Shown: positions 16,896-46,240, counted from the stretch's first letter. The stretch: DNA of 64,000 bases from Vicinamibacterales bacterium (GCA_036489235.1 DASXGC010000038.1:5704-69703); one strand, 5' to 3'. The notes: generated from the sequence alone by a model not told the origin. Program-made: numbers and translations.

Positions 16896-16928
16896 TTAGT
16901 GACTAAGATTATTAGCGTGTGAGATAAT
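16896..16928 (+). promoter_or_regulatory. candidate marR promoter/operator: palindrome TTAGT-G-ACTAA (16896-16906) and -10-like GATAAT (16923-16928)
   Basis: AT-rich divergent spacer between the exporter operon and marR. The palindrome overlaps a -35-like GTGACT. GATAAT lies 13 nt before the marR ATG. No experimental support. Confidence 0.3.
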
Positions 16929-16941
16929 TTGTCAACCGCCC

Positions 16942-17490
16942 ATGAACCGCAGCCGCCGTCACCAGCGCATCGACCGGCTCGGGGCCCAACTGGGCCGCGA
17001 GCTCAGTACTCACACCATCATGTTTCACCAGACCGTCGCCGACTGCCTCGGGGTGGCGCCGACCGATCACAAGTGCCTCGGCTTCATCGCCGATTCCGAT
17101 CACCCGGTCACCGCCGGCGAGCTCGCCACCCTCACCGGATTGACGACTGGCGCGATCACGGGTGTGCTGGATCGGCTGGAATCCGCCGGACTCGCCAGAC
17201 GCGAACGCGACCCGGGCGATCGGCGGCGCGTGGTCGTCACCGCCGCGGCGACGGCGCGCGATCGGGTCTGGCCGTTGTTCGAAGGGGTGGCACGGGCGTC
17301 GGCCAAGCTGGCCACACGCTATTCTGATCACGAACTCGAAGTGATCGAGCGCTACGTGATCGACAGTATCGAGATGATGAAAGAGGAGACCAAGCGGCTG
17401 CGCGAGGCGCAGACGGCTCAGCTCTCCTCTTCGAACTCTTCTTCTTCGGGCGGACCGAGCCGGGTGGACGGACGCAAGGCCTCGCGGTAG
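16942..17490 (+). CDS. MarR-family transcriptional regulator
   Basis: wHTH segment AGELATLTGLTTGAITGVLDRLESAGLARRERDPGDRRRVVV. Divergent from the exporter operon. Confidence 0.85.
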   Translation: MNRSRRHQRIDRLGAQLGRELSTHTIMFHQTVADCLGVAPTDHKCLGFIADSDHPVTAGELATLTGLTTGAITGVLDRLESAGLARRERDPGDRRRVVVTAAATARDRVWPLFEGVARASAKLATRYSDHELEVIERYVIDSIEMMKEETKRLREAQTAQLSSSNSSSSGGPSRVDGRKASR

Positions 17491-17642
17491 TCGAACAGCG
17501 GCAGATCGCGCACGTGCAGCGGCAGCGTGCACGCCGGCGACTTCAAATCGACCACGACGGTGACGGGACTTCCCTCGACGCCCTCGCGAAACGCGATGCG
17601 GCAGCCACAGGCGAGCCGCGCGTGCGTGAATCCCTTCAGCAT
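17418..17642 (-). CDS. small hypothetical protein (CxC ... C-x4-H, acidic tail)
   Basis: 74 codons. Counting codons by eye, GC3 is very high. It starts 13 nt after the TlpA stop. Sequence: MLKGFTHARLACGCRIAF...SPACTLPLH...PPEEEEFEEES. It overlaps the marR 3' end by 73 nt. Confidence 0.5.
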   Translation of the reverse strand: MLKGFTHARLACGCRIAFREGVEGSPVTVVVDLKSPACTLPLHVRDLPLFDYREALRPSTRLGPPEEEEFEEES

Positions 17643-17654
17643 GCGGCGATCATA

Positions 17655-18233
17655 CTACAGGAGCGACTTGATCTCGTTCTCGAACGCGTCCTTCGAGTTC
17701 AGGCCGGTGTGCTTCGCGCACACCTTGCCGTCGCGCGAGATCACCACCGTCACCGGGATACCGAAGAGCGGACCGTACGCGTCCTGCATGTCGTCGTGAT
17801 CGAGCCCCTGCAGCACCAGGTAATTCATCTTCATCTGCGCGACGTACGGCTTCAGCTTCGCAACGGTATCGTCCACCGACACCCCCACCACCGTCAGCCC
17901 CTTGTCGCCGTACTTCTGCTGGAACTCGATGAACCACGGAATCTCGACCTTGCACGGGCCGCACCAGGTCGCCCAGAAATCGAGCAACACGACCTTGCCC
18001 TTGAGCGTAGCTAGGTTGACCGGCTTGTTGTCGATGTCCTTCAGCGTGAAGTCGAGCTTGGCCGGCTTGGCGTTCGCGGGACACGACGTGGTGCCCGGCG
18101 CGTTGGCCGCGCCAGCCTCGGAGAAATGGAACGGCCACCCGGGATCGGCGTTCAGCGTCAGCAACGCGAGCGCCAGAGCACCGACCGTGGCAATCACCCA
18201 TCGAATATTCATGCGCGTCATCCCCTGCCGCAA
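17655..18233 (-). CDS. TlpA-like periplasmic thiol:disulfide oxidoreductase (redoxin)
   Basis: WATWCGPC active site within a thioredoxin fold, with an N-terminal anchor. Confidence 0.88.
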   Translation of the reverse strand: MRQGMTRMNIRWVIATVGALALALLTLNADPGWPFHFSEAGAANAPGTTSCPANAKPAKLDFTLKDIDNKPVNLATLKGKVVLLDFWATWCGPCKVEIPWFIEFQQKYGDKGLTVVGVSVDDTVAKLKPYVAQMKMNYLVLQGLDHDDMQDAYGPLFGIPVTVVISRDGKVCAKHTGLNSKDAFENEIKSLL

Positions 18234-18257
18234 TATCGAACCTGAAAACGTCTTGGG

Positions 18258-19076
18258 CTAGTGCATCGACGCGCGGACATACTCCGCGAGCCGTTCGACA
18301 TCCTGGCGCGGTTCGCGCGCAATCAGGACGAACGTGCGGTCGCCGGCACACCACACCGCGGCTTCGTGTCCGAACACCTCGAGCAGTTGCTGGGTACGCG
18401 GGGTCTTGGGCAACATGAAGAGCGACACCGGGTGTCCCTGGTGGCGATACATGATGTGGGCGATCTTGCCTTCGGCGTAAACGCAGGGCCGCGAGCCGAC
18501 CAGCTCGAGTCCCGCGCGCGCCGGCTCCGAGGGCAGGTGCATGCGCCAGTCGAACGACGCCAGCATCGAACTCTCGACCGCCTCGGTTTCGTCGTGGGTG
18601 CCGAGTACGCCATTCATCGCGAAGCACTTCATGTGATCCGCCGTCAGTTCGGCGGCCATCACCCGCGCCGACTTGTCGGTCGCCTGATACAGGAACGCGC
18701 CGCCGACGCCAACCACGAGCGACGCGGCGAGCGCGTACGGGGTGAACCGCGCGCGCCACGAGGGCGACGGCATGGACGCCGCCGCGCCGGCGACACCGCC
18801 CCGCGGCGCCGCAGCCGAACGAATCTCCCCCGGTTGCGCTGCCGTTGCCCGCGCCATGCCCGCGCACGTCGCGTGCAGTGAATCGGGCGCCGACTCGCGG
18901 CACAACCCGGTGCGCTGACGATGCATCAGCTGATGCACGGCGCGCTCGGCCGACACGCGCGAATGACACGGCGGGCACTGCAGCAGGTGGATTTCCACCA
19001 GGCGGCGATCGGCGTCCGACAACGCCTCGTCGACAAACGGCGTCACGAGCGGATCGATGAGGTCACAGTTAGGCAT
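18258..19076 (-). CDS. anti-sigma factor (zf-HC2), single-pass membrane
   Basis: [15 protein letters not shown] matches H-x3-C-x2-C. There is a central TM ([20 protein letters not shown]). It overlaps the sigma-factor stop by 8 nt. Confidence 0.8.
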
Positions 19077-19638
19077 TGACTGGTCGCAAATGATTCAGCT
19101 GATCGAACAGTAGTCGGCGGCCCCGCGAGATCCGTGACATCACCGTGCCGATGGGCACAGACAGCATCTCGGCGATTTCGGCGTAGGAAAATTCTTCCAC
19201 GTCTCGTAACCAGACCGCCTGCCGGAACGCCTCCGGCAAGTCGTCTATGGCCGCCTGCAGCTCCGGCCCGAGCGTTTCGCGCAGCAGCAGGGACTCCGGG
19301 GTCTCGCCCCGTCCCGACACGCTTCCGATCGGCGTCGGCGCATCGGCGGCGCGATCGACCAGCTCGCTGTCGATCGCGACCGTATCGCGGGCCCGGTCCC
19401 TGGCGCGGTTCCGCGCCGTGTTGTGGAGGATCGTGAACAGCCACGCCCTCAGGTTCGTCCCCGGCTCGAAGCGGTCGGCCGCGCGGAACGCCTTCAGATA
19501 TGTTTCCTGCACCAGGTCCTCAGCGTCTGCCGGCACGCGCGTCAACCGCCGGGCCGCTCGATACAGGCTATCGAGCGACGCCAGCGCCTCGCTTTCAAAA
19601 GCGGGCGACACCACTCGTAAACCCTGGCGGGGCGTCAT
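19069..19638 (-). CDS. ECF-type RNA polymerase sigma-70 factor
   Basis: Region 2: [11 protein letters not shown]...WLFTILHN. Region 4: [25 protein letters not shown]. Confidence 0.9.
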
Positions 19639-19897
19639 TTATTCCAGCCTTCGCGCGTCCGACCTCAGCGTGCGCCGGGCCCAGAGCTGAGAGACGTCCG
19701 CCGTTACAAACGACACCGGGGCGGAGGCGAACAGTATAGCCCTGTCGCCCAAAATGGTCGGGTTCCGGCGTCACCAGAGGACAGCCGCCTGGATCCGCAC
19801 CGGTATCAATCGAGCACAACGTTTGCAGGCACCTCGGCGTCACAGTAAGATCGCTGACAGTCCCGTCTGAAGTCCTGGTCTTTCCGAGGTACCGCAT

Positions 19898-22800
19898 ATG
19901 CGCCGCCGCGTGCCGCTGACGTCCGTATTTGTGGTCTTGATCGTGGCACTCGCAACCGCTCATGCGAGCGTCGCATCCGCCCAGACCTCGATGGTGCCGT
20001 ACTACGGCAAGAACAACATCCATTACGACACGTTCAAGTGGCAGGTCTACACCACGGACCATTGCGAAATCTATTACTACCCCGCAATGCAGCAACATCT
20101 CGAGCGCGTCGCCGGCTATCTCGAGAGCGCCTACCAGCAAATCAGCGCCGACCTGAAACACGACCTGTCGTTCAAGATTCCGGTCATCCTGTTCAAGACG
20201 CACAGCGAATTCGAGCAGGAGAACGTCGCGCCGGGCGCGGCAGACGAAGGCGTCGGCGCGTTCGCCGAGCCGGAGATGCATCGCATGGTGCTGCCGATCG
20301 ACGACCCGCCCGACCAGCTCTACGGCCTGATCGTCCACGAGATGACCCACCAGTTCGAGTTCGACATCATCCCGACCGGACTGATTCGCCGCAGCACGCC
20401 GCTCTGGGTCAACGAGGGCTTGTCGGACTACGAACGCGGACAGTGGAGCCCGATCGACCTGATGTCGGTGCGCGACGCCGCGGTCGCCGACATCGTGCCG
20501 AAGATGAGCGAGCTCGAGGGCTACGCCGGCAACAACCCGCGACTGATTTACAACCTCGGCCACGCGGTGTTCGAGTTCATCGAAGCGAAGTTCGGCAAGG
20601 AAGGCATCCGCCAGTTCATGTTCGCGCTGCGCAAGAGCGTCATCGGCGGCGGTGAAGACGCCTACGAAGAAGCGCTGAAGATGAAGAAGGACGAGTTCGA
20701 CCAGAACTTCGAACGCTACCTCAAGGAACGCTTCAAGCCGTTCCGCGACAAGGAGCGTCCGGCCGATTACGGCCGCGACCTCGCTCCCAATCCCGAAAAG
20801 ACCGCGTTTATCGAGGCGCTGTCGATTGCCCCGTCTCCATCCGGCGATTTGATCGCCGCGGTCACCGTCAATCGCAGCGACCGCGAATACGACATCATCC
20901 TGCTGTCCTCGAAGGATGGCTCGGTGGTGCGCAATCTGACCCGCGGCTTCGACAAGGACATGGGCTTCGATCACATCGTGCAGCTCGGCGAACGCTTCGA
21001 GATGCCGTGGATGTCGTGGTCACCGAAAGGCGACCGGCTCGCGTACTTCGTCCGCACCGAGAAAGAGCGGACGCTGATCATCCAGAACGTGCTGACGGCG
21101 AAGATCGAAGTCCGGGTGCCGATGAAGACGGTCGACGAACCGGAGTCGCCGGCCTTTTCGCCGGACGGCAAAACCGTGGTGTTCGCGGGGTTGCGCGGCG
21201 CCGTCGGCGACATCTTCACCGTCGACCTGGCGAACAGCAACATCACCAACCTGACCAGCGACGCGTTCGCGGACTCGGGGCCGACCTACTCGCTCGACGG
21301 CACGTTCATCATCTACAACGCGCGGATCAGCGGCAACCAGAAGCTATTCCGGCTGGATCTCGACACCAAGAAGAAAACCCAGATCACCTTCGGCACGCAG
21401 GACGAAACCGCCGCCCAGTTCATCAGCAACGACCTGATCGTGTTCTCGTCCACCGCTACTGATCCGGCGGTGCCGCTCGAGCCGGAAGTCGCGAAGAACG
21501 GCAACATCTACAACATCTGGACGCTCGATCTGAAGACCAACGAGCTGCGCCAGTACACCGATGCGCTCGGCGGCAACTGGTCGGCGGTGGTGCTCAACGA
21601 AGGCAGCACCAACCGCATCGCCTTCATCTCGTATTACAAGGGCGATTTCGGCATCCACACGCTCGAGCGCAAGGAGCCGCTGCACACGGCGGTTTCCTCG
21701 GACTTCGGCGCGCCAGGACCGGTGATCGACTTCCAGGCGCCGCTGCAGCACACGCTGGTGCAGGACAACATGCACCCGAAAGGCGCCTTCGAGAAGATGT
21801 TCCTCCAGGGCCGGCCGCCGGTGAACGTCGGCGTGACCAGCAACGGCGACATCTTCGGCGCGACCCAGATCAGCTTCGGCGACGTGCTCGGCGACAAACA
21901 GGTCAACTTCTTCGCCTCCTCGATCTCGCAGTACCGCACGCTGGCGCTGTCCTATCTCAACATCGGACAGCGGTTCCAGTATGTGTTGCAGGGATTCTCG
22001 CAGACGCAGTTCTACTACGGCACCGGCACCCAGTTCTACGCGTCGGTCTACAGCGACCTGGTGCCGCGCGATCAGGCCGTCGCCACCCGCAGCATCGTCG
22101 GCGGTTCGGCGACCGGCATCTATCCGTTGAGCCGCTATCGCCGGCTGGAAGTGTCGGCGAGCCTCTATCACATCAGCGAGTCGTACTCGGATCCGACGCT
22201 CCAGGCGGCCTCCGAGCAATATCAGCAACAGCTGTACGGGACGCAGGTCTTCCAGAACGGCACGCTGCTGCCGCTCAGCGCCGCGTTCGTATCGGAGACG
22301 ACGGTATTCAGGGAGTTCGGGCCGCTCGCCGGCAACACGATGCGCGGGGCCTACGAGATCGCGCCGCCGTTTGGCGGACTGCTCTCCCGCCAGACGGTCG
22401 ACCTCGACGCGCGTCACTACACGCGCATCGGCGGCACCGGCCTGCTGGCGCTGCGTCTGCGCGGGTTCAAGAGCTGGGGCGACGAGCCGAACTACATCTA
22501 TTTCGGCGGTAACTCCGAAATGCGCGGCTACGATTACCTGCAGTTCACCGGCCAGAACGTCGTCTTCGCGAATGCGGAATTACGGTTCCCGATTATCGAA
22601 GCCGCGCTCACTCCGATCGGCGTGGTCGGCGGCGTGCGCGGCGTCTTCTTCGCCGACATCGGCGGCGGCTGGTTCAACAATCAGGTCTCGCCCGATTCCT
22701 GCTCGAACGGCGGCGGCTACAAGTTCTTCACCAACGCGACCCTGACGTGCCGATCGCAGGGTGCGGCCGCCGATGGAACGCCCATCTTCGGCACGCCCCA

Positions 22801-23032
22801 GGTCGTCAACGGCTTCCGCCTGATGGACGGCCGCGCGTCATACGGGCTCGGCCTCGAGACCTTCGCGCTCGGCTTCCCGATTCATTTCGACTGGGCGTGG
22901 CGGACGACCTTCAACAAGACCTGGGAAGACCTCACCTTTGCCGGACAGAACGGCTGCAGCATCACTGGCGCCGGCTGCAGCGACGCGTATCGCAAGGCCC
23001 GCTTCGCAGTGTGGATCGGCTACGACTTCTAG
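19898..23032 (+). CDS. outer-membrane protein: peptidase-MA (gluzincin) domain + PD40/TolB-like beta-propeller + Omp85/Bac_surface_Ag beta-barrel
   Basis: Signal peptide ...ATAHASVASAQ. HEMTH at nt 20336-20350, followed by WVNEGLSDY (the third-ligand Glu). PD40-like repeats: SPSGDLIAAV, WSPKGDRLAYF, FSPDGKTVVFAG, PTYSLDGTFIIYNA. Omp85-type C-terminal region GGNSEMRGYDY...NAELRFPI...FFADIGGGW, ending in WIGYDF. Confidence 0.85.
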   Translation: MRRRVPLTSVFVVLIVALATAHASVASAQTSMVPYYGKNNIHYDTFKWQVYTTDHCEIYYYPAMQQHLERVAGYLESAYQQISADLKHDLSFKIPVILFKTHSEFEQENVAPGAADEGVGAFAEPEMHRMVLPIDDPPDQLYGLIVHEMTHQFEFDIIPTGLIRRSTPLWVNEGLSDYERGQWSPIDLMSVRDAAVADIVPKMSELEGYAGNNPRLIYNLGHAVFEFIEAKFGKEGIRQFMFALRKSVIGGGEDAYEEALKMKKDEFDQNFERYLKERFKPFRDKERPADYGRDLAPNPEKTAFIEALSIAPSPSGDLIAAVTVNRSDREYDIILLSSKDGSVVRNLTRGFDKDMGFDHIVQLGERFEMPWMSWSPKGDRLAYFVRTEKERTLIIQNVLTAKIEVRVPMKTVDEPESPAFSPDGKTVVFAGLRGAVGDIFTVDLANSNITNLTSDAFADSGPTYSLDGTFIIYNARISGNQKLFRLDLDTKKKTQITFGTQDETAAQFISNDLIVFSSTATDPAVPLEPEVAKNGNIYNIWTLDLKTNELRQYTDALGGNWSAVVLNEGSTNRIAFISYYKGDFGIHTLERKEPLHTAVSSDFGAPGPVIDFQAPLQHTLVQDNMHPKGAFEKMFLQGRPPVNVGVTSNGDIFGATQISFGDVLGDKQVNFFASSISQYRTLALSYLNIGQRFQYVLQGFSQTQFYYGTGTQFYASVYSDLVPRDQAVATRSIVGGSATGIYPLSRYRRLEVSASLYHISESYSDPTLQAASEQYQQQLYGTQVFQNGTLLPLSAAFVSETTVFREFGPLAGNTMRGAYEIAPPFGGLLSRQTVDLDARHYTRIGGTGLLALRLRGFKSWGDEPNYIYFGGNSEMRGYDYLQFTGQNVVFANAELRFPIIEAALTPIGVVGGVRGVFFADIGGGWFNNQVSPDSCSNGGGYKFFTNATLTCRSQGAAADGTPIFGTPQVVNGFRLMDGRASYGLGLETFALGFPIHFDWAWRTTFNKTWEDLTFAGQNGCSITGAGCSDAYRKARFAVWIGYDF

Positions 23033-23036
23033 AACG

Positions 23037-23519
23037 CTGATCCCCAAGCGGGCGGACGAATCGGCGACCGAAACGGTTCACGTCGTCCTGCCGAACGACG
23101 CGAACCCGCTGGGGTTCATCCTCGGCGGGACGGTCATGCACCTCATCGACATGGCCGGGGCGATCGCCTGTCATCGTCACACCCGCAGCCTGCTGGTCAC
23201 GGCGGCGGTGGACGACCTCCAGTTCCTCAACTCGATCAAAATCGGCGATCTGATCATCCTGCGCGCGCGGGTCACGTGCGTGTTCACGACCTCGCTCGAA
23301 GTGCAGGTGGACGTGTTCTCGGAGGAGATCCTGACGGGAGTACGGCAGCAAACCAGCCGCGCCTTCCTGACCTTCGTGTCAGTGAATGGTGAAGGCGGCC
23401 GGCTGCCGGTTCCGCCGCTCATCGTCGAAACCGACCAAGAGCGGCGCGTGTGCGAGCAGGCCCACGCACGGCGGGCCGAACGGCTGAAGCGGAAGGCCGG
23501 CGCTACGAACTCGCTTTGA
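23037..23519 (+). CDS. acyl-CoA thioesterase (hotdog fold, YciA/BFIT-like); start codon uncertain
   Basis: VHVVLPNDANPLGFILGGTVMHLIDMAG... aligns with the YciA N-terminus. Upstream of it, the only in-frame candidate starts are CTG at 23037 and TTG at 22938; the TTG would overlap the previous gene by 95 nt. Confidence 0.7.
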   Translation: MIPKRADESATETVHVVLPNDANPLGFILGGTVMHLIDMAGAIACHRHTRSLLVTAAVDDLQFLNSIKIGDLIILRARVTCVFTTSLEVQVDVFSEEILTGVRQQTSRAFLTFVSVNGEGGRLPVPPLIVETDQERRVCEQAHARRAERLKRKAGATNSL

Positions 23520-25014
23520 GCCGCAGGACGCTGCGGTCCATGTCGATCGCGACGCGGTATTTGCTCAGGAACTTGTGTCCGACGATGCCACCGAGCTGAA
23601 ACCCGAGCAGCGCGCTCGGCGCGTTCAGATTGAGCACGACCACCGGGAAATTGCGATACGGAATGGCGTCGAACATCAGGTCGACGCCCGGCATCAGGAA
23701 CGCGTCGGGATCCCAGCCTGACGTGCCGTACACTTTCAGGGCAATCCGGCGCCCGTTGTCGTGCTTGGTCAGCGTGCTGGCGGTCGCCGAGCTGATCGAG
23801 ATCACCTCGCCTCCCGTATCCACGACAAAATTCGCGTGACGGCCGTCGACGGTGCCAAGCACCGTCGCGAGGCGGTTGACGCGCATCGGCAGCTCGAAGT
23901 CGCGAGGCTCGTCGGGCAGGTGCTTGCCGAAGATCAGCTTGTGCGTCTTGTAGTCGATGATCATCGAGTAGCCGAGCGCCAGCGGCGACAGCCCCTCGGT
24001 CTCCTTGACCGGAATATCCTGCAGCGGCGGATTCTTGATCAGGCACGGCACGTTGCGAAGCTTCAGCGGTCCCAGCTCCAGGGAATCGATCCGCGCCAGC
24101 TGCAGGCCGCGCAGACCGACACGTCCGACGCCGGCACTGAGGGTGTAGGTGACCGGCGTGATACCGAGCTTCTGAGCGGTGGTGCGGGTGATGACGGTGT
24201 TCTCCGACCCGGTGTCCACGACGAAATCCTGCGCTGAGGCGTCGTTGACCTTGGCGCGAACGACGACTTTGTCGTTCACCAGACGGAAATCGACCGTGTA
24301 GAGTCCTTCGTCTGCTCCCGGATCCGTTTCGAAGGGGATCCGCTGCCCGAATGACCGCAGAAAGCGGATTTCCGCGCGAGACCAGTCGGCTTTTTCGCTG
24401 TGATCCTTGTTGGGCAGCAGGTTCACGTAGTTCGAATAGGCGGCCGCGGCTTCCTCGTACTTGTGCATCCGCTCGTAAATGGTGCCGACGGTGTGATGAA
24501 TCTCGAGATCCCGAGGCGACAACTGGAGCGCCGCCTGCGCCTCGATCATCGCCCGATCGAGTTGACCACTCGCGGCCAGCGATTTGGCGTGACCGTGACG
24601 GCCGCGCGCCGAATCTGGCTGCGCTGCCAGCACGTCGCGGTAGACCGCGTCAGCCTCGTCGAACAGCCCGGACGACCACAGCGCGTCGCCGTACAGCGTC
24701 ATCGACAGGGTCTGCTTGGGATCCGCCTTGTACAATTTCTCCGCTTCGATCCTCGCCAGATCGAACTCCGCCACGCGCAGCGCCGAGGCGATGACCCCAA
24801 TCCGTGGGCGCCGGACCGAGCCGGAGTCCGCCGTTTTCAGCGCCAACTGATAGGCGTCGAGGGAATCGCCGAATTTGCCCTCGGAGAAGAGCAGGTCGCC
24901 GAGCTGCAGCTCGATCTCGGACGTCTGGGACGGCGGGGTGGCGTCCGCACGAATAACGAGCGAAGCCGCCGCGACGATGGCCGAAACGGCGGCGACACGA
25001 ATGGCGCTGTGCAT
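23503..25014 (-). CDS. secreted TPR-repeat protein with two retropepsin-like aspartyl-protease domains
   Basis: Signal peptide, then TPR-like helices. Two DTG motifs: FVVDTGSENTVI and FVVDTGGEVISI. Confidence 0.8.
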   Translation of the reverse strand: MHSAIRVAAVSAIVAAASLVIRADATPPSQTSEIELQLGDLLFSEGKFGDSLDAYQLALKTADSGSVRRPRIGVIASALRVAEFDLARIEAEKLYKADPKQTLSMTLYGDALWSSGLFDEADAVYRDVLAAQPDSARGRHGHAKSLAASGQLDRAMIEAQAALQLSPRDLEIHHTVGTIYERMHKYEEAAAAYSNYVNLLPNKDHSEKADWSRAEIRFLRSFGQRIPFETDPGADEGLYTVDFRLVNDKVVVRAKVNDASAQDFVVDTGSENTVITRTTAQKLGITPVTYTLSAGVGRVGLRGLQLARIDSLELGPLKLRNVPCLIKNPPLQDIPVKETEGLSPLALGYSMIIDYKTHKLIFGKHLPDEPRDFELPMRVNRLATVLGTVDGRHANFVVDTGGEVISISSATASTLTKHDNGRRIALKVYGTSGWDPDAFLMPGVDLMFDAIPYRNFPVVVLNLNAPSALLGFQLGGIVGHKFLSKYRVAIDMDRSVLRLKASS

Positions 25015-25144: not shown

Positions 25145-25615
25145 TCAGTGGGTGTACTGCTCGATCGGCACGCCGTCGTACATCTGGTCCACCCGGAGGA
25201 TCTGGGTGTCGCGGCTATAGGTGCCCAGCTCGTAGTCCTCGCTCATGATGAGGGCCTTGATCGGCTTGGTCGGGCAGACCTCGGCGCACAGTCCGCAGAA
25301 GCTGCAGCGCGAGAGGTTGAAGTCAAAGTAATCGAGGACCTTAATCTTCTGGCCCGGCTCCCGATGACCGCCGAGGGCGATCAGGTCGTCAGGGCACGCC
25401 TTGGCGCACTGGTCGCAGACGATGCAGGTCTGGGCTCCGGTGCCGGGCTCGGTCTGGAGGCGGAGCACGCCCCGGAAACGCGGCGCGGTCGGGCGCCGTT
25501 CGGCCGGGTACTGGAACGTGAACGCCGGCTGCGGCGTGTATTTCAGGGTCAACCACATACCTTTGGCGAGGTCGACCAGGAAGATCATCCGGAGGAATTT
25601 GATGATGGTTTTCAT
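25145..25615 (-). CDS. nuoI: NADH-quinone oxidoreductase subunit I (2x[4Fe-4S])
   Basis: TFQYPAERRPTAPRFRG, CIVCDQCAKACP, CSFCGLCAEVCP. Confidence 0.9.
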   Translation of the reverse strand: MKTIIKFLRMIFLVDLAKGMWLTLKYTPQPAFTFQYPAERRPTAPRFRGVLRLQTEPGTGAQTCIVCDQCAKACPDDLIALGGHREPGQKIKVLDYFDFNLSRCSFCGLCAEVCPTKPIKALIMSEDYELGTYSRDTQILRVDQMYDGVPIEQYTH

Positions 25616-25616
25616 G

Positions 25617-26174
25617 CTATGCGCGCTCGCCGTGGACGTCGTACCGTTCGCTGTTCAGCGTCGGTTCGCTGTCGCCGGCCATGATCGTGCGCTCCTTCCG
25701 GAGCACGGTGCCTTCCTTGCGGATCTTGTCCTGCAGGCGCATCAGGCCGTAAAGCAGCGCCTCGGGACGCGGCGGGCAGCCCGACACGTAGACGTCCACC
25801 GGCACGACTTTATCGACGCCCTGCAGCACGCTGTAGGTTGGAAACGGTCCGCCGGCGTTCGAGCAACTGCCCATCGAAATGACCCACTTGGGTTCGGGCA
25901 TCTGATCGTAGAGCCGGCGCAGCACGGGGGCCATCTTCTTGGTCACGGTGCCGGCCACGATCATCAGGTCGGATTGCCGCGGGGACGCCCGGAACACCTC
26001 GGCGCCGAACCGCGCGATATCGAAGCGCGACGCCGACGCGGCCATCATTTCGATCGCGCAGCACGCCAGGCCGAAACCCATCGGCCAGATCGACGATTCT
26101 CGGGCCCAGTTCAGGACGCGATCGATGCTGGTGGTGATGAAATTGTCTTCGAAGGTGTGATCAATGAGGCCCAT
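25617..26174 (-). CDS. nuoB: NADH-quinone oxidoreductase subunit B (N2 cluster subunit)
   Basis: [41 protein letters not shown]. Carries a ~35-aa C-terminal extension. Confidence 0.9.
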
Positions 26175-26177
26175 CGG

Positions 26178-26438
26178 CTACCTCGGATAGTATTGCGCGT
26201 TTTTCGAGATGAAGTCGGACCATTTCCGCGGAGTCTCGTCGAGCGAAAAAATCGCCTCGACCGGACACGCCGGCACGCACGCTCCGCAGTCGATGCACTC
26301 GTCTGGATGAATATAGAGCATTTCGGCCGTGGCGAAGCTGGCTTCGTCCTTCCGCGGGTGGATACAGTCCACGGGACAGACGTCCACGCAGGCAGTATCC
26401 TTAACGCCGACACACGGCTCGCAGATGATATACGCCAT
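26178..26438 (-). CDS. 7Fe-type ferredoxin (FdxA-like)
   Basis: ORF track 26178..26642 is over-extended by 68 codons. From ATG 26438: MAYIICEPCVGVKDTACVDVCPVDCIH...HPDECIDCGACVPACPVEAIF. Confidence 0.85.
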   Translation of the reverse strand: MAYIICEPCVGVKDTACVDVCPVDCIHPRKDEASFATAEMLYIHPDECIDCGACVPACPVEAIFSLDETPRKWSDFISKNAQYYPR

Positions 26439-26454
26439 CGCACTGATCATACTA

Positions 26455-26835
26455 GTGTCCTGCAATCCCGCGCTCACGGCGCTCTTTACGCCGGCGCAGC
26501 GCGGGCCAGGACGGTACGAGGTCTGCACCACGACCGAGACGCTCGAGCATGTGGTCGCGTCCGGACCTGCCGACGACATCCATTTCGGGGACATCGAGGC
26601 GCTCGAGTCGCTGGACGCGTTCGGCAAGGCCGGGCCATACAATCGCTCGCGCCTGGCGCGGCTCTACGGCGGCACCCGCGTGATGGTCGTTCATGGCTGG
26701 GGTGCCAGCGCGGCGGGATTTAGGTCGGTGACGCTGCTGTCCCCGTACCCCGATCCCTCCCTGACGAGGCTACTCCCCGGCACGATGTCCATCCGCTGGC
26801 TGACCAGTCCGACCGAGGACACCGGCGGACTATGA
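26455..26835 (+). CDS. hypothetical protein
   Basis: Codon-by-codon inspection shows strong GC3 bias in this frame. GTG at 26455 is the first start that does not overlap the divergent ferredoxin gene. I recognised no family. Confidence 0.55.
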   Translation: MSCNPALTALFTPAQRGPGRYEVCTTTETLEHVVASGPADDIHFGDIEALESLDAFGKAGPYNRSRLARLYGGTRVMVVHGWGASAAGFRSVTLLSPYPDPSLTRLLPGTMSIRWLTSPTEDTGGL

Positions 26836-32412: not shown

Positions 32413-34424
32413 GAGCTGGAGCTGGAACGCGCGTGGCGTCACGAAATGCGTGCCGCTGAAGGTGGACAGGAAGTTGTACAGCGCCTCTTTGTTGGTCAGG
32501 TTGATGACGCTGGCGTGCAGACGCAGCTTCGCCCGGTTCGTTCGCAGCAGGTTGTCCACGCCCGCGCCCAGGTCGAACAGATTCCGCGGTGCAATCCGCG
32601 CCGGATTCGTCACATCGTCTTCGGTCCCGTCGGCGGGGATGACGATGCGTGTCGCGCCGCGATTCGCCGAGCTGCAGCTCGTGATCGGCGCACCGAGCGA
32701 CGCGAACGTATTTCCGCAATAGAGTCCGATCGCCGACTGTTGATCGGCGATCAGCGCCAGCGCATCGGCATAGCTCGGCACCGATCCGACGACCAGCCCT
32801 GAATCGTAGCGCCAGCTGAGGGCGACCCAGGCGCCCAGCGCCTTGTCGATGGTGTACTGCAGGTTGGTGGTGGCGTTGAATTTCTGATCGTGGTCGATTC
32901 GGAAGTCGCCTTCCGGCGCCTCCAACAAAATCCCGCCGTTGCCGGGCGGCGAGAAAATCGCGCTGGTGTGAGCCATCACCACGAACGCGCTGAAGCCGCG
33001 ATGCTCGACCAGGTTGATCCGTCCGGTGAAGCCGTTGATGCGCGAATGATCCCAGGACACGGGAAACACGATCGGCGTGTCGAAGAGCACGCTGAAGTCG
33101 TAGGCGTTGTCCGTGTGCTTGTTGAAGTAACCGAAGTCGACGAGGACCCATTTGCCCAGGCTCTGCTGCGCGCCAATCTCGATCTGGTTGCGCCGGCCCG
33201 GCTGCAGAATCTGTCCATCGCCGAACAAGCCGTTGAGACCGACGCCGCTCGGGGATTGGCACTCGGCGAGTAGACGAGATGATCCTGGCGTACGAATGCG
33301 TTCGCGGTCAGCAGCGTGCTGGCGCCAATCACCTGCGAATAGCCGGGCGCCACGTTGAAGGTGTCGATCGACTGATGCTGCGCCTGTCCGGCGTCGTTCT
33401 GGTCGTAGGTATTGGGGACATCGAAGTCCGACTTTGCCGCCTGCAGATTCAGGTGAAAGGTCGACGTCGATCCTGCGTGCGCGTCGAAACGGTTGAACAG
33501 CGACGCACTGTGACCATGATCGTGCATCGCCTCGAACTCTGGCGGATCCAGAAAGCGATCCGTCTGCATGCCGTTGATCGATACGAAGTCGCCGAAGTTG
33601 TGCGAGCCGCCACCGAGGTTGAGGTCGGCGGTCGGACTGCTGAATGATCCGTAGCCGATCGACGCACTGCCGGTCGGCCTGGGCTGATCGAGCCCGGACC
33701 TGGTCACGATGTGTACGACCAGGCTGCTCTTGTCGCCGTATTCCGCCGGCGCGACGCCGGTGATGATTTCCATCGATTGCACGGCGTCCGGCGAAATCTG
33801 GTTCGAGTAGACGCGGCTCTGCTGATCGGTGACCGGCTGATTGTCGATGGAAAACTGGGTCTGCGCGTGGTCGCCGATCGGATGGAAGAACCCGTTCGAG
33901 TCCGACACGACACCGGGTGACGCCATCGTAATCACCTGATTCAGCCCGGACGAGGATTCGAGCGGCAGCTTCTCAATCAGACTCTGATCGATGTCGGTGT
34001 GCGCGGTCGGATCGCGCTCGAGCAGGTCGGCGTGCCCGACGACGTCGACGCTCGTGGTGGCGCCTTCCAGCGCAAGTGCCAGGTCGAGGGTGATCGGGAC
34101 GGCGCTCCGGACTTCAACGTCACGTGCCAGCGGCTGAAAGCCCTGCGCCTCGACCGCCACGTGGTACCAGCCGGGCGGCAGGTTGCCGAACTGATATTTG
34201 CCCGACGCGTCGGTCGTCGTCGATCGCGTGAAGCCCGAGACCGGATTGCCGATCTGAACCGTGACCGCCTGCATCACGCCGCCGGTGGGATCCTTCACCG
34301 TGCCCTGTACGGTCCCGGCTCCGCCGAGCCCTTGTGCGTCGGCCGCAACCACACCGAACCCGCACACCGCACACAACACCAGCAGAGCGGCCGAGCACGT
34401 TTTGGGAAAGCTTCGGGTCAACAT
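32398..34424 (-). pseudogene. TonB-dependent receptor (CarboxypepD_reg N-domain + plug + barrel) interrupted by a single frameshift
   Basis: ORF 32976..34655 carries the N-part (from ATG 34424: MLTRSFPKTCSAALLVLCAV...) and turns to junk after ...VYSPSANP. ORF 32398..33228 carries the C-part in the -1 frame and ends LQLGVSF. The total span is 2027 nt; one extra base would give 2028, or 676 codons. Confidence 0.8.
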
Positions 34425-34660
34425 GAGGCGACGGTAACAACCACCGCCATTGGGCGCGACCGAAACCACACGAATGGTCCCTGACGGTCGGCAACCGTCA
34501 CGTTCAGGCCGACGAATGGCACGCCGCGTTTGCCCCACTGGGCGACCTACAATGAAATCCATCGGACGCGGTCCGGCGACCATCCACCGGCCGAAATCGA
34601 CCGCCGAACGGGTTTGAGTTCGGTTCCGGCGTCCCCGGACGTAGGGTTGCGTCAACGAGC

Positions 34661-42057: not shown

Positions 42058-43335
42058 CTATGGGACGTGCGCTACCCGGATCATCGACGCCGACGTGCGG
42101 CCGCTGGTCCAGACCACCACGACGCCGTCAGCCACCGGCGCCACCGCCGGATACACACCAGGCGTGCCGTTGCTGATGACCTGCGATTTGAAGGAGTGAG
42201 CGGTGCGCTCCGCCATCACGATCCGCCGCGCGCCGTCCTTCGTTTCGTCCCAGACCAATATGACGCGTTTGCCATCGACTGCGACCCGCGGATGGTGCGG
42301 CACGCCCTCGGTCGGCACTCGCACTCGCGCCGAAAACCGGAGAGCGTCGGCGGACGTTGCGTAGAAGATGCCGATGCCGGGCTCGCCGTCCGAGCCTGTG
42401 ACGAGCGTCGGCCACGCCAGGTGCACCCGATTCTGCCCGTCCACCGCCATCGCCGGTCCATCGTCTGGGCACCCCTCGAGCATCCACTGGTCCTCGCTGA
42501 CGCGAAGCGGAGGCGCGAACGTCCTGCCGCCGTCGCGCGAGACGGTGAACGCCATGTCACGGAGGTTGCCGGGATAAACATGACGCCAGGCTGCATACAA
42601 TGCACCGTCGGCGCCGGCGACCAGGGCCGTCTTGCAGCAATAGCAGACGCCGCCGGTGATCGCATGCGGCTGAAGTGAGCCGTCGACAGACGCCACGTAC
42701 AGCTTCGACTTCTGCGCCATCGCGACACCGTCGGGCTTCGCGTCAGCCGCGGCGCCATGTTCGTGATGACTCATGGCCACGGTCGAGTCCGCGGCGAGCT
42801 CGCGATGGTCGAGCCACAACGCGTCCACTCGCCCGCCGGCCTCGACGGCGGTCGCCTGCCAGCCACGATTTCCAGCCGCATCGCTGCCCGGAACGACCGC
42901 GGAGTGCGCGAAGGACTTGCCGCCATCGTCCGACCGCGACTGCAGGAGCGTCGTACCTTTGGATCCCTTCGACGTCCATACGACCGTGATCGCCGGTGGC
43001 TGACCGGCACGGGCAGTAATCGTGACCTGCGGCGCCTGTTCGGCGGTGACACGAGCGTCGCCAGCAACCGTGTTCACGCGCACCGGCGCGGCGAACACGC
43101 GTCCCGAGTCTCGACTGGTCGCTGCGTAAATGTCGGTTGCGCCATCCGGCGTTGAGGCGCTCCACACGACCGCGACGAAGGTGCCGGCGGCGGCTGTCGT
43201 CGGTGTCTGGTTGGCCCGTCCAGGCACACCGAGATCCACGAACGTCGTCGTGCCGGAGGCTGTGCCCGAGGCCGTGCCGCCAAGCGCGAGTCCGAGCACG
43301 ACAAGCGATGCATTCACCGTTCTTAGAAACTCCAT
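42058..43335 (-). CDS. secreted BNR/Asp-box (sialidase-fold) beta-propeller protein
   Basis: ORF track is over-extended by 79 codons; the start is ATG 43335 (MEFLRTVNASLVVLGLALGG). Asp-box motifs: SRDSGRVF, SDDGGKSF, SRDGGRTF. The start overlaps the TBDR stop by 13 nt. Confidence 0.8.
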   Translation of the reverse strand: MEFLRTVNASLVVLGLALGGTASGTASGTTTFVDLGVPGRANQTPTTAAAGTFVAVVWSASTPDGATDIYAATSRDSGRVFAAPVRVNTVAGDARVTAEQAPQVTITARAGQPPAITVVWTSKGSKGTTLLQSRSDDGGKSFAHSAVVPGSDAAGNRGWQATAVEAGGRVDALWLDHRELAADSTVAMSHHEHGAAADAKPDGVAMAQKSKLYVASVDGSLQPHAITGGVCYCCKTALVAGADGALYAAWRHVYPGNLRDMAFTVSRDGGRTFAPPLRVSEDQWMLEGCPDDGPAMAVDGQNRVHLAWPTLVTGSDGEPGIGIFYATSADALRFSARVRVPTEGVPHHPRVAVDGKRVILVWDETKDGARRIVMAERTAHSFKSQVISNGTPGVYPAVAPVADGVVVVWTSGRTSASMIRVAHVP

Positions 43336-46142
43336 CGGGCACCCAGTTGAAATTGGCGCATGTCGCCGACGGCAGTCACCTGCTCGAAGGTCGGTGACGG
43401 TGTCGGCGTGTTGCCAATCGTGTTGTTCACGTTGACGACGTTGACGTGGTTGAAGAGGTTGAACCCCTCGAGCATCAACTCGAGCCGGTGCGCGCCGCCG
43501 AGTGCGAGCACCCGCGAGAGGCGAACATCGAACGACGTCGTGCCGCAGACCTGGTTCAGATCGGAATAGCACGGGAACCGTCCACTGTTGCGACCTACAC
43601 CGGCTGGACGATCGTTCACGGTCGTATCGTTGTTGTTGTCGGCGCCAGTGACGATGGTGAAGGGTGCGGCGGTGGCATAGGAGTACACCCAGCCGATCTG
43701 GAACCCGGCGAGCGCTCGCCGCACCGCTGCACTGGTGCCGTCGCCAACCGTTCCGGCGATGACCAGACGCTGCCGCTGATCGTTGTCGGACGGCCCCTTG
43801 TCAGCCAGGATGTCGTTCTGGGTCTGCGGCGTCTGGAAAAACGCATTGCCCGAGTCGTCCTGCGCATTCGACAGCGTGTAAGACACGCGGGCGCGACCCC
43901 ACGGCGCGTGACGGGTGTCGAGCGACGCGGTGAAGCCATGGAACCAGGCGTCACCGAGTGCGTCGTACTGGTTGATGTTGCCATAGCGCGGATCCGGACG
44001 CCCGAGATTCGCGACGCCTAAGACCGCTGCCTGCGCCGCCGTCAAAGTGGGGACGTTTACGTTACGCGACATCAGGATGTCGTGGCCGCGCATGTAGGTG
44101 TAGCCAAACTGCGCCGACAGCGACGAGCCGATCGCGCGTTCGACCTGTAAGCCGGCCTGTTGGTTGTACTGGTTCTGCACGTTCGGGTTGATGTTGCTGA
44201 TAGAAACGAGAACGCCGGCCGGAAATACCGGGAGGACGTTCGGCCATGCAGGCGCGCCAGCCTGTCCAAACGACAACACGGCGGTTTGATAGATCGTGCC
44301 GTCGCGTTGAATGGCGTTCGAGGTCGCGCGGAGTGGGATCCGGTCGAAGTAGAGTCCGGCGCTGCCGCGAATGACGGTCTTACCATCTCCTGGCGAATAC
44401 GCCGCCCCGATTCGCGGCGAGACGTTGTTGGCGTCGAGCTGAATCGGCGCTGGCAGCCACTGCAGGTCGTAGCGAAGACCGGCGTCAATCGTGAAGTTCG
44501 ATCGCACTCGCCATTCGTCCTGAACGAACAGACCCAGATTGGGATTCGACTGCAGCAGCGAAGTGACGCCGAACGCCTGCTGGTACTGCGAATAGATTCC
44601 ACGCTGAAACGTCGCGAGCGAGGAAAACGTGTACGAGCCCTGCAGCGCGCCGGGAAAGACGATGTTGACGCGGTTGTAGAGCAGCTCGGCGCCGGTCTTG
44701 ATCAGATGTGAGCCGCGCTGCAGCGTCAGGGTATCGACGGCCTGGAATACATCGGCGTCCCTTTCCGTCGGTGACGAGGTGGCGACGCCGAAGTTGGCGA
44801 CGCCGGAGATGCTGACGGCTGGCCCGATGGTGTCGTTGACCGGCGCACCAAGCCGGCTATGCGTATACTGAGCACGCGCCTCGTTGATCGCTCCTGACGA
44901 CAGCGTTGACAGGTAGTTCACGGCACCGGTCTGATCCGTGTCATCGAGCGCGGCGCCGCGGCTGACGTCGCTCAGCCCGCCGACGTTACGCGCGTTGTCG
45001 CTGGTGACGTGGTAGAAGAGGTACCGCAGTTGGAGGTTCGCGGCCGGTGTCGCCTGATGATCGACGCGACCGAACAGGTTCGTGCTGTCGTAGCCGGTCG
45101 GAAAATTTCCAGTGGCGATGCGCGGGCCGTGGTAGCCGGCGGCGTCGAGGGCCGCGTTGACCGCTGTCACCGCGTCGGGCGCTATGGTCACCACGCCGGT
45201 GCGGTCCTGTAGCGTCTGTTCGACGTTGCCGAACCAGAAAGTTCGATTCTTCACGATCGGTCCACCCAGCGTGAAGCCGAATTGATTCTGGCTGAGCGGA
45301 TCCTTGCGCGTCGCCAGCGGATTCTGGGTATCGAACACGTCGTCGCGAAAGAACTCGTAGGCGCGTCCCTGGTAGCGATTGGTGCCCGACTGGGTGATCA
45401 CGCTGATCGTCCCGCTCGAGGCGCGGCCGAATTCGGCGCCGCCGCCGGCCGTCACCACTTCGAACTCGCGGACGACTTCCTGACTCAGCGAGACCCCGGC
45501 AAGATCGGCGGCATCGTCGTTCGCGGACAGGCCGTCGAGCACGAAGTTGTTGTTCAAGTTGCGCTGACCGGCCACCGAGACGCCGGTGCCGGCCACCGCC
45601 GATGTTTCGGCGAACCGGTCGGTGGTTTTCAGGTTCGTCCGCGACACGTTCGGCGCCAGCAGCGCGAGGTCCAGATAGTTACGCCCGTTGAGTGGAAGAC
45701 TGTTGACCTCTCCCGGCGTGATCGTCGATGCCATTTCCGTGCGACGTGCCTCCACCAGCGGCGCGGGCGCCGCCACCTGAACGGACTCGGCCACCGCCGC
45801 GGGCTTGAGCACGATCGGCACGTCCACCTGATCCCGAACGGCCAGCGTCAGGCCGGCATTGGTGGTGCCAAATCCACTCAACTGAACCGACAGGTGGTAA
45901 TCGCCTGGCGGGAGGTACGAGAGGCGAAACTGGCCCTTTGCATCGGTCACCGTCTGCCAGGTCTGGTTGGTCGCGTGATTCCTGATTTCGACGGTCGCTC
46001 CCGGCACCACCGCGTCGCTCGAATCGCGAACAGTTCCCGTGACGCTCGCTGACGCCACGGTCTGCGTCATCGCCGGCGGTGGCGCCGCCCATATACATGC
46101 AAACGCCAGCCAGACGGCCCGCCTGCGAAGTCCTGACCACAT
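43323..46142 (-). CDS. TonB-dependent receptor with N-terminal CarboxypepD_reg domain
   Basis: Start taken at ATG 46142 (MWSGLRRRAVWLAFACIWAAPPPA). VTGTVRDSSDAVVPGATVEIRN..., a plug region (NGRNYLDLALLAPNV), and a barrel ending LGARWSF. Confidence 0.88.
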   Translation of the reverse strand: MWSGLRRRAVWLAFACIWAAPPPAMTQTVASASVTGTVRDSSDAVVPGATVEIRNHATNQTWQTVTDAKGQFRLSYLPPGDYHLSVQLSGFGTTNAGLTLAVRDQVDVPIVLKPAAVAESVQVAAPAPLVEARRTEMASTITPGEVNSLPLNGRNYLDLALLAPNVSRTNLKTTDRFAETSAVAGTGVSVAGQRNLNNNFVLDGLSANDDAADLAGVSLSQEVVREFEVVTAGGGAEFGRASSGTISVITQSGTNRYQGRAYEFFRDDVFDTQNPLATRKDPLSQNQFGFTLGGPIVKNRTFWFGNVEQTLQDRTGVVTIAPDAVTAVNAALDAAGYHGPRIATGNFPTGYDSTNLFGRVDHQATPAANLQLRYLFYHVTSDNARNVGGLSDVSRGAALDDTDQTGAVNYLSTLSSGAINEARAQYTHSRLGAPVNDTIGPAVSISGVANFGVATSSPTERDADVFQAVDTLTLQRGSHLIKTGAELLYNRVNIVFPGALQGSYTFSSLATFQRGIYSQYQQAFGVTSLLQSNPNLGLFVQDEWRVRSNFTIDAGLRYDLQWLPAPIQLDANNVSPRIGAAYSPGDGKTVIRGSAGLYFDRIPLRATSNAIQRDGTIYQTAVLSFGQAGAPAWPNVLPVFPAGVLVSISNINPNVQNQYNQQAGLQVERAIGSSLSAQFGYTYMRGHDILMSRNVNVPTLTAAQAAVLGVANLGRPDPRYGNINQYDALGDAWFHGFTASLDTRHAPWGRARVSYTLSNAQDDSGNAFFQTPQTQNDILADKGPSDNDQRQRLVIAGTVGDGTSAAVRRALAGFQIGWVYSYATAAPFTIVTGADNNNDTTVNDRPAGVGRNSGRFPCYSDLNQVCGTTSFDVRLSRVLALGGAHRLELMLEGFNLFNHVNVVNVNNTIGNTPTPSPTFEQVTAVGDMRQFQLGARWSF

Positions 46143-46240
46143 AAAAACACCTCTGGAATGCAAAACCACTGGGACCACCGGAATCCGGGCGGATCACTCC
46201 ACCCGCGACGGTCCTCGAGTCGCGTTCGTCGAACGAGGTG

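Follow-up and report, generated by a model that had tools for sequence, protein, structure and literature searches.

What does a single long gene in a 64,000-nucleotide stretch of DNA from a Vicinamibacterales bacterium (GCA_036489235.1 DASXGC010000038.1:5704-69703) encode, and what might its product do for the cell? The gene lies at positions 19898-23032 of this stretch, which is called the window in the following, and its current database labels are "hypothetical protein" or "PD40 domain-containing protein". An original prediction, made from the sequence alone, had seen in it a single chain that combines a gluzincin protease domain, a PD40 propeller and an Omp85-type barrel, and had proposed a periplasmic metalloprotease tethered to the outer membrane. 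Taking sequence, structural models and analogies together, we assign a probability of roughly 0.6 to the reading that the protein is a periplasm-facing, outer-membrane-anchored metallopeptidase that would act on unfolded envelope proteins or peptides, and that has the WD40-like Omp85 architecture.

Domain structure of the protein and its placement in the Omp85 superfamily

The features of the gene and its product are as follows, with the kind of evidence in brackets.

19898-23032 (+): coding sequence, 1044 amino acids plus stop, with peptidase, PD40 propeller and Omp85 barrel (reading frame; identical protein from a Vicinamibacterales assembly)
19898-19981 (+): signal peptide, residues 1-28, with a probable signal peptidase I (SPase I) site after VASA and without a lipobox Cys (read from the translation)
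19982-20767 (+): gluzincin (MA clan) zinc metallopeptidase domain, residues 29-290 (model, Foldseek, profile search)
20255-20272 (+): GAFAEP, residues 120-125, mostly on the strand preceding the active-site helix (conservation, model)
20336-20350 (+): HEMTH, residues 147-151, with the predicted zinc ligands H147 and H151 and the predicted catalytic base E148 (conservation, model)
20405-20431 (+): WVNEGLSDY, residues 170-178, with E173 as predicted third zinc ligand (conservation, ColAP alignment)
20549-20551 (+): Y218, candidate transition-state-stabilising Tyr (conservation, ColAP alignment)
20768-21673 (+): six-bladed PD40/TolB-like beta-propeller, residues 291-592 (Pfam, NCBIfam, PDB, model)
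21674-21796 (+): linker, residues ~593-633, poorly conserved and without a POTRA fold (Pfam scan, model, conservation)
21797-23029 (+): Omp85-type beta-barrel, residues ~634-1044, with about 16 strands and an approximate start (Pfam, NCBIfam, Foldseek, model)
22523-22531 (+): RGY, residues 876-878, within GGNSEMRGYDY, where MRGY is 875-878 (conservation, model)
22649-22663 (+): FADIG, residues 918-922, on predicted strand 13 (conservation, model)
22676-22831 (+): long predicted extracellular loop 7, residues 927-978, with the Cys pair C935/C951 (clade conservation, model)

The reading frame starts with ATG and is uninterrupted over 1044 codons, and its product is 100% identical to a protein (P0001) that is annotated as hypothetical in a Vicinamibacterales metagenome-assembled genome. 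Since 3672 database proteins are homologous at E≤1e-5, including the identical one, this is by its sequence relationships a genuine gene and not a chance open reading frame (ORF) of high-GC DNA. An exhaustive search of a library of 50%-identity representatives returned 1221 clusters at E≤1e-30, and many of these are full length (930-1050 amino acids) at 26-46% identity. No second copy of the gene was found within the 64-kb window. For the conservation across the family 33 diverse full-length members of 26-55% identity were used, and for the close clade 58 sequences.

The single chain of the original prediction is thus borne out, and its sequence landmarks, HEMTH, WVNEGLSDY about 21 residues further on and the WIGYDF end, all lie where it had placed them. 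The predicted signal peptide is also visible in the translation: the N-terminus, MRRRVPLTSVFVVLIVALATAHASVASA followed by QT, begins with MRRR, continues with a hydrophobic stretch and reaches VASA directly before QT, which looks like a Sec/SPase I signal. This region is weakly conserved (24% mean identity). At the other end the chain closes with FAVWIGYDF, a C-terminal aromatic beta-signal whose terminal Phe is nearly invariant. In scans of the whole protein, PD40 is the only Pfam family that exceeds its curated threshold, and Omp85 is not among the matches; the NCBIfam matches (TolB propeller, flagellinolysin HExxH and Omp85_fam) are partial and all far below their cut-offs. The three domains were considered one by one.

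Within the protein, conservation is highest in the peptidase domain, with a mean identity of 39.7% compared to about 31% for the propeller and the barrel. The model of this domain (m3fd0b455e2ea; residues 29-300, alignment of 43 sequences spanning 36-90% identity) reached a predicted local distance difference test score (pLDDT) of 82.5 and a predicted template-modelling score (pTM) of 0.81. When this model was compared with the PDB by Foldseek, every fold match was a gluzincin. The best ones were peptidase domains of clostridial M9 collagenases (4ar9, 7zbv and 4ar1; E=9e-6 to 6e-5), followed by PepN, LTA4H, ColAP, IRAP, ERAP1 (3mdj) and tricorn F3 (1z1w, 3q7j) of the M1 type and then by M30 and M61 enzymes, with query-normalised TM-scores of 0.4-0.6 at 10-16% identity. 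A profile of 16 N-domains of the family had the M1 enzyme ColAP (3cia) as its best match in the PDB (E=0.0039), in an alignment that spans the HExxH motif, the W-x-x-E-G helix and the Tyr of the 'PYvKG' position.

The putative catalytic residues H147, E148, H151, E173 and Y218 are invariant in the 33 diverse members, and the entire HEMTH motif, which sits on a helix formed by residues 138-157 in the full-length model, is invariant in these and in the 58 close sequences. E173 is found 21 residues past H151, giving the spacing HExxH-x21-E. It belongs to WVNEGLSDY, a motif that aligns with 'lWlnEGft' of ColAP and in which G174 is likewise invariant and W170 nearly so. Y218 aligns with the Tyr of ColAP 'PYvKG', a position that we take to be that of the catalytic transition-state-stabilising Tyr of M1 enzymes (Tyr383 in LTA4H). 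In GAFAEP, which follows the family pattern G-[AG]-F-[AST]-E-x, A121 and F122 are conserved positions and E124 is close to invariant; the motif is possibly the counterpart of the substrate-binding strand 'GxMEN' of M1. Judged from sequence and model, the N-domain is a gluzincin with an active site that looks catalytically intact. This agrees with the HExxH...E metalloprotease domain of the original prediction, and the invariance of HExxH, E173 and Y218 on a gluzincin fold speaks against the possibility it had raised, that the HExxH motif lies in a non-catalytic context.

The assignment of the domain to a particular family is less straightforward. Peptidase_MA_2 (PF13485) matches 12 of the 16 N-domains at E<0.01, with a best value of 8.2e-9, and a precomputed match to it is present in many homologues. 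The window protein itself gives E=0.057 on the whole protein and 13.7-16.8 bits, below the gathering threshold of 32.4. On these profile scores the N-domain is best described as a divergent relative of Peptidase_MA_2. Membership in M1 was rejected, with GAFAEP in place of GxMEN, a spacing of x21 and not x18, and the M1 flanking domains absent; only Y218 aligns. M9 was rejected as well: it provides the best structural matches, but Peptidase_M9 touches just one of the 16 N-domains (E=7e-4), and the activator domain is absent.

The second domain is recognised by Pfam as PD40 (E=4e-7 on the whole protein) and by the NCBIfam TolB propeller family (E=3.9e-21, at a score far below the family cut-off). 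TolB chains of the PDB match it with E=6e-14 by sequence and about 1e-10 by fold, and according to both kinds of comparison TolB is its closest relative. The resemblance is confined to the propeller blades: the TolB equivalog TIGR02800 reaches 75.5 bits compared to a cut-off of 343, and the TolB N-terminal domain is absent. Tricorn_N and Tricorn_2nd, two further propeller families, appear among the precomputed Pfam matches of homologues. The original prediction had counted at least four PD40-like repeats; the repeats were found, and their number is refined to six blades in the full-length model, where its strands fall into six groups with four or five in each, mostly at a pLDDT of 75-90.

For the third domain, PF01103 (Omp85) matches residues 701-1044, scanned alone, with E=2.4e-10 (40.9 bits, cut-off 24); in the NCBIfam scan of the whole protein, Omp85_fam gave E=1.8e-5. 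Foldseek searches with the full model led to the barrels of BamA and TamA (E=1e-9 to 2e-8). The barrel part of the model (pLDDT 50-85) shows about 16 strands, and the modelled strand order would fit a 16-stranded barrel if the first strand lies at about 634-647; loop 6 would then lie between strands 11 and 12. RGY is found between the strands with these numbers, with R876 invariant and G877 conserved in most of the diverse members, and presumably represents the loop-6 motif (V/I)RG(F/Y) of Omp85 proteins, as in BamA, TamA and FhaC. In FADIG, the residues F918, D920 and G922 are at least 90% conserved; we assume that this is the Omp85 motif 'FxDxG', which contacts loop 6 in BamA. The C-terminal Bac_surface_Ag-like barrel that had been read from the sequence is well founded on these profile and fold matches and on the two retained motifs.

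The predicted extracellular loops differ between clades. The proteins of the window clade are about 60-80 residues longer than those of the sister clades, and part of this surplus falls into the predicted loops 7 and 8. C935 and C951 are at least 90% conserved in the close clade, within a segment (927-978) of low model confidence, and a second Cys pair, C1020 and C1027 (~22955-22978), is found in predicted loop 8. It is possible that C935 and C951 form a disulfide and that the Cys pairs serve as disulfide-stapled surface loops.

No POTRA domain precedes the barrel. The linker comprises about 40 residues, compared to roughly twice as many in a POTRA domain, and is poorly conserved, with no column at or above 90% in residues 593-655; in addition, a search of residues 589-751 gave no Pfam match, POTRA included, at E≤10. 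This supports the earlier view of a barrel without POTRA domains. A beta-alpha-alpha-beta-beta unit was likewise sought in the linker of the full-length model, and none was found.

The combination of these domains is not new, since it has been catalogued by bioinformatics from 2014 on. Heinz & Lithgow (2014, Front Microbiol 5:370, PMC4104836) divided the Omp85/TpsB superfamily into ten bacterial subfamilies, among them WD40-like, 'Metallo' and noNterm. The WD40-like subfamily, which they found spread over many phyla, was defined by PF01103 plus PF07676 repeats without POTRA. Their Table S3 contains for this group a column 'best aminopeptidase hit' with a Phyre2 confidence of about 99% and the templates 1z5h (tricorn F3), 4kxd, 3qnf, 4ar1 and 4ar9, next to the templates 2w8b and 2ivz for TolB and 4k3b and 4c00 for BamA/TamA. 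The main text of PMC4104836 discusses the propeller alone (as a 'BamA-BamB fusion'), the peptidase being a column of the supplementary table, and it does not mention Acidobacteria. More recently, 'divergent WD40 and peptidase domains' were ascribed to the subfamily (PMC11358297, 2024), and the metalloprotease, WD40-like and patatin-like subfamilies were called 'not well characterized' and 'intriguing targets' (PMC11116518, 2024).

The window protein has the profile of this subfamily: PF01103 and PF07676 repeats, TolB as best propeller template, and N-terminal to the propeller an aminopeptidase/collagenase-like region, as seen by Foldseek (4ar9, 4ar1, tricorn F3 and ERAP1). Six of our structural matches, namely 2w8b, 2ivz, 4k3b, 4ar1, 4ar9 and tricorn F3, also occur in Table S3. 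By this domain profile and overlap of templates, the window protein is an acidobacterial member of the WD40-like Omp85 subfamily. The premise of the original prediction, that Omp85 barrels carry either POTRA domains or a patatin domain, was incomplete, because PMC4104836 had already defined the WD40-like subfamily with its peptidase templates, besides the 'Metallo' and noNterm subfamilies. Whether the architecture had been characterised before has accordingly a divided answer: it was catalogued bioinformatically, and no functional or experimental study of any WD40-like Omp85 member was found in the searchable literature.

A homologue without a barrel is encoded on plasmid pSR116 of Salinibacter ruber (WP_118831798.1, 633 amino acids, L088:3908-5809). 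It covers the peptidase and propeller with 27% identity to the window protein (E=3e-48) and is annotated as 'basic secretory protein-like protein'. Since such a homologue exists, the peptidase-propeller module seems to be a unit of its own, to which the barrel is an addition and which crosses phyla, a distribution resting on PMC4104836 and on this one Salinibacter match. The ORF downstream of the Salinibacter gene was examined as a detached barrel and is not one. About 3 kb downstream there is also a gene for a TlpA-family disulfide reductase; this resembles the window but may be a coincidence.

Gene neighbourhood and promoter

The neighbouring genes and the elements upstream of the gene are listed here.

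17655-19638 (-): divergent operon with genes for an extracytoplasmic function (ECF) sigma factor (19069-19638), a zf-HC2 anti-sigma factor (18258-19076) and a TlpA/AhpC-type redoxin (17655-18233) (Pfam)
19823-19851 (+): putative housekeeping-type promoter with TTGCAG (19823-19828), a 17-nt spacer and TAAGAT (19846-19851) (intergenic alignment)
19886-19890 (+): Shine-Dalgarno-like GAGGT, 7 nt before the ATG (sequence; conserved in the intergenic alignment)
23503-25014 (-): convergent downstream gene for an exported TPR and retropepsin-like aspartyl protease of 503 amino acids (Pfam Asp_protease_2, E=1.3e-19, and TPR families)

Related loci were collected by a scan with an alignment of eight sequences, of which the best 80 loci, all from Acidobacteriota, were used; neighbours were counted in those loci of the close clade that have enough flanking sequence (67 upstream of the gene, 66 downstream). 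The Pfam identities agree with the divergent ECF sigma/anti-sigma/TlpA-type operon of the original prediction. The ECF sigma factor gene adjoins the gene in 37 of 67 clade loci and the anti-sigma factor gene in 38 of 67, and the gene for the TPR-aspartyl protease, which has a visible signal-like N-terminus, follows downstream in 48 of 66. Both the ECF sigma factor and the TPR-aspartyl protease genes are absent beside the gene in five distant loci of 31-45% identity. The combination of TPR and protease in the 503-residue neighbour recalls BepA; a functional link to the gene of the Omp85-peptidase is hypothetical.

In an alignment of eight orthologous intergenic regions between the ECF sigma factor gene and the gene in question, TTGCAG-N17-TAAGAT and GAGGT are the only conserved blocks. 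A generic sigma-70 scan had missed this promoter, because 8 of 12 positions match and nine were required. These blocks suggest that the gene is transcribed from its own constitutive, housekeeping-type promoter in the Vicinamibacterales clade. TTGCAG-N17-TAAGAT is possibly also a useful example of a housekeeping promoter of the Vicinamibacterales. An ECF-type promoter, searched as [TG]GAAC-N15-18-[CG]GT in 45 of these intergenic regions, was found in three of them and not in that of the window, so that direct control of the gene by the ECF sigma factor no longer counts as a supported claim. The link to envelope stress that had been suggested by the original prediction is not supported, since the connection is positional and limited to the clade: the operon adjoins the gene in the 37 of 67 clade loci given above and in none of the five distant ones, and no ECF motif faces the gene.

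A different neighbourhood was found in the sister clades. There, in relatives of 31-47% identity, two small genes lie directly ahead of the gene, in the same orientation and with gaps of 4-18 nt; the first encodes a TPR lipoprotein of 109-140 amino acids and the second a lipoprotein of about 225-254 amino acids without a Pfam family. Most of these proteins have lipobox-like N-termini, and in L085 the pair is fused to a single protein of 402 amino acids. The pair is found at the following positions.

L081:4894-5986
L082:70-1135
L083:4936-5992
L087:4890-5982
L085:4782-5990 (fused)

It is also present upstream of the gene in L078-L080 (44-45% identity). Of the five distant loci, the four with separate lipoprotein genes belong to sister Vicinamibacteria and to relatives that have Holophagae or Thermoanaerobaculales as their own neighbours. 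In the window and in L001-L077, no homologue of the protein of about 230 amino acids was found, and for the other protein there was only weak similarity of the TPR type. From its gene order, the lipoprotein pair together with the Omp85-peptidase gene looks like a conserved three-gene operon in the sister clades, and its products possibly form a small complex that resembles the machinery for beta-barrel assembly (BAM).

Some observations concern the window at large. A MarR-family regulator (16942-17490, plus strand; E=1.4e-14) overlaps a frame on the opposite strand (16912-17532) that has no family and is probably spurious. Two further frames, 17650-18978 (-) and 25401-26723 (+), resemble shadow ORFs of high-GC DNA. 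The latter was considered as a real gene on account of its conservation in tblastn, but was rejected, as its translation is rich in Arg and has the character of an antisense artefact. A protein of 951 amino acids (43323-46178, minus strand) combines CarboxypepD_reg with a TonB-dependent-receptor-like outer-membrane barrel, and a second CarboxypepD_reg protein is encoded at 32976-34655 (-). Elsewhere there are MacB/FtsX-type permeases, HlyD, ABC components, two sigma-54 activators and a HerA-like ATPase. Genes of this kind are ordinary soil-acidobacterial content.

Proposed function and alternative explanations

In the reading that we prefer, the barrel would reside in the outer membrane and the peptidase-propeller module of about 600 residues would hang into the periplasm and there, on the inner side of this membrane, might cleave peptides or unfolded polypeptides. 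The propellers of tricorn and of DPP-IV-type peptidases restrict the access to the peptidase to unfolded chains, and the propeller of TolB binds disordered peptides and Pal. By comparison with these proteins, the propeller of the window protein is probably a substrate filter or a docking platform. The barrel would be the membrane anchor, and it may also recognise, at its seam, the beta-signals of outer-membrane proteins; an action at the lateral gate, as considered in the original prediction, is hypothetical. With such a recognition, the protein could be a functional analogue, in one chain, of BAM and the BepA protease taken together.

Omp85 barrels have their N-terminus in the periplasm. The enzyme domain of PlpD, another enzyme-bearing Omp85 protein, is located 'exclusively in the periplasm' (PMC11116518, Hanson et al. 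2024). For these two reasons a periplasmic location of the peptidase-propeller module is, by analogy, most likely. Of the periplasmic, tethered metalloprotease that had been predicted, the architecture is thus confirmed, and the periplasmic location is plausible from the topology of Omp85 proteins and PlpD.

Several results weigh against this reading. The full-length model is mediocre (pLDDT 66.5, pTM 0.56), so that the packing of the domains, the number of strands and the start of the barrel are uncertain. The Peptidase_MA_2 score of the window protein is 16.5 bits, compared to the Pfam cut-off of 32.4. The best fold matches of the N-domain are M9 endopeptidases, whereas its motif pattern is nearest to the M1 aminopeptidases, and the two point to different modes of cleavage (exo- versus endopeptidase). 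Moreover, the genomic context differs between the clades and gives no consistent functional hint, and the ECF neighbour comes without a recognisable ECF promoter facing the gene.

It is conceivable, though we consider it doubtful, that the protein is a complete quality-control machine of the outer membrane. The barrel would capture the beta-signals of stalled or misassembled outer-membrane proteins, or other unfolded proteins of the envelope, the propeller would thread them and the gluzincin would degrade them, in the sister clades with the help of the two lipoproteins. If this were true, proteolysis, and not insertion or translocation, would for the first time be the primary output of an Omp85 protein.

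Alternatively, the protein might chiefly be an insertase or translocase for outer-membrane proteins, with the propeller in the role of BamB and the peptidase as an accessory or regulatory part. The retention of the hallmark motifs of the Omp85 barrel would fit such an assembly factor, as would the lipoprotein pair of the sister clades, one of them a TPR protein, in an arrangement that recalls BamA and its BamD-type lipoprotein partners, and a 'BamA-BamB fusion' was explicitly hypothesised in PMC4104836. However, the protein lacks the POTRA domains by which every characterised insertase of the family handles its substrates, its propeller resembles the six-bladed TolB and not the eight-bladed BamB of E. 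coli, and neither the window nor its clade has the two lipoprotein genes. Furthermore, the peptidase is the most conserved domain and has kept all catalytic residues, an indication that selection acts on catalysis. A role chiefly in assembly is therefore unlikely.

We regard it as quite improbable that the barrel exports the module to the cell surface, similar to a type V 'passenger', for the digestion of environmental proteins as nutrients in soil. Vicinamibacteria are soil heterotrophs, and the window clade has long predicted extracellular loops with Cys residues, both of which would suit a display or secretion of the module. An outward translocation was also raised for enzyme-bearing Omp85 proteins in PMC4104836, following the view of PlpD at that time. 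This precedent has been overturned by the periplasmic location of the PlpD enzyme domain (PMC11116518), and the window protein has neither a POTRA domain nor a two-partner-secretion (TPS) signal. A folded propeller plus a peptidase of 260 residues would, in addition, be a poor fit through a barrel with a conserved lock of loop 6 and strand 13.

Finally, a pseudo-enzyme that links the outer membrane to the cell wall like Tol-Pal, with N-domains that bind partners, for instance peptidoglycan-associated lipoproteins or peptides, without proteolysis, has in its favour that the propeller is most closely related to TolB and that the Peptidase_MA_2 score of the window protein is weak, but it is very improbable, given that HExxH...E...Y is invariant across a deep divergence, which would not be expected of a dead enzyme, and that the protein is without the N-terminal domain of TolB and scores so far below the cut-off of the TolB family.

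If its conserved active site is functional, an outer-membrane-anchored metallopeptidase, as we propose it, could explain how defective outer-membrane proteins are cleared in bacteria without an obvious BepA-type system. For the gene in the window, the value of the analysis lies mainly in the annotation, for which 'Omp85-anchored gluzincin peptidase with TolB-like propeller' would be better than the current labels; the large subfamily as a whole is still a target for experiments. Candidate additions to the literature are the conserved Tyr, the pattern of constraint on the domains and the two-lipoprotein operon of the sister clades.

Comparison with known systems

The protein belongs to the Omp85 superfamily by its PF01103 barrel and its loop-6 RGY and FxDxG motifs, and falls outside the classical definition of BamA, TamA and TpsB, which includes POTRA domains. 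With TolB it shares the six-bladed PD40 propeller; TolB, however, is soluble and has an N-terminal alpha/beta domain that the window protein lacks. Tricorn likewise couples propeller domains to a peptidase, and Tricorn_N and Tricorn_2nd match family members in the region of their propeller. The similarity does not extend beyond the propeller; tricorn, an S41 serine protease of the cytosol, has a six-bladed and a seven-bladed propeller and a PDZ domain.

Among the gluzincins, M1, M9 and Peptidase_MA_2 (BSP) enzymes have the same thermolysin-like fold, with the HExxH helix, the Glu ligand on the next helix and the Tyr. The differences are those already met in the family assignment, namely the spacing (x21, not x18), the strand motif (GAFAEP, not GxMEN) and the lack of M1 flanking and M9 activator domains, and the N-domain is outside every curated MEROPS family tested.

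The closest functional analogy is offered by BAM together with the M48 proteases BepA, YcaL and LoiP. At BAM, these zinc proteases remove outer-membrane proteins that have stalled (PMC13067283; PMC13478230). In both cases a zinc metalloprotease would work next to an Omp85 barrel, on the side of the outer membrane that faces the periplasm. We do not claim homology: BAM and its proteases are separate proteins, and BepA consists of an M48 domain plus TPR, without a propeller, and is not a gluzincin of the M1, M9 or MA_2 type.

The nearest precedent for an enzyme on an Omp85 barrel is PlpD (type Vd), whose enzyme domain also lies N-terminal to the barrel. PlpD is a patatin lipase with one POTRA domain and forms a homodimer, whereas the window protein has a zinc peptidase and a propeller; a Pfam search of it for patatin or POTRA gave no match. 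To our knowledge, every Omp85 protein studied before PlpD inserted or translocated proteins, and we know of no other fusion of an enzyme to Omp85 that has been tested. PlpD showed that the Omp85 scaffold can carry a periplasmic enzyme. If the active site of the window protein and its relatives is functional, regulated proteolysis at the outer membrane would join the known functions of Omp85 proteins.

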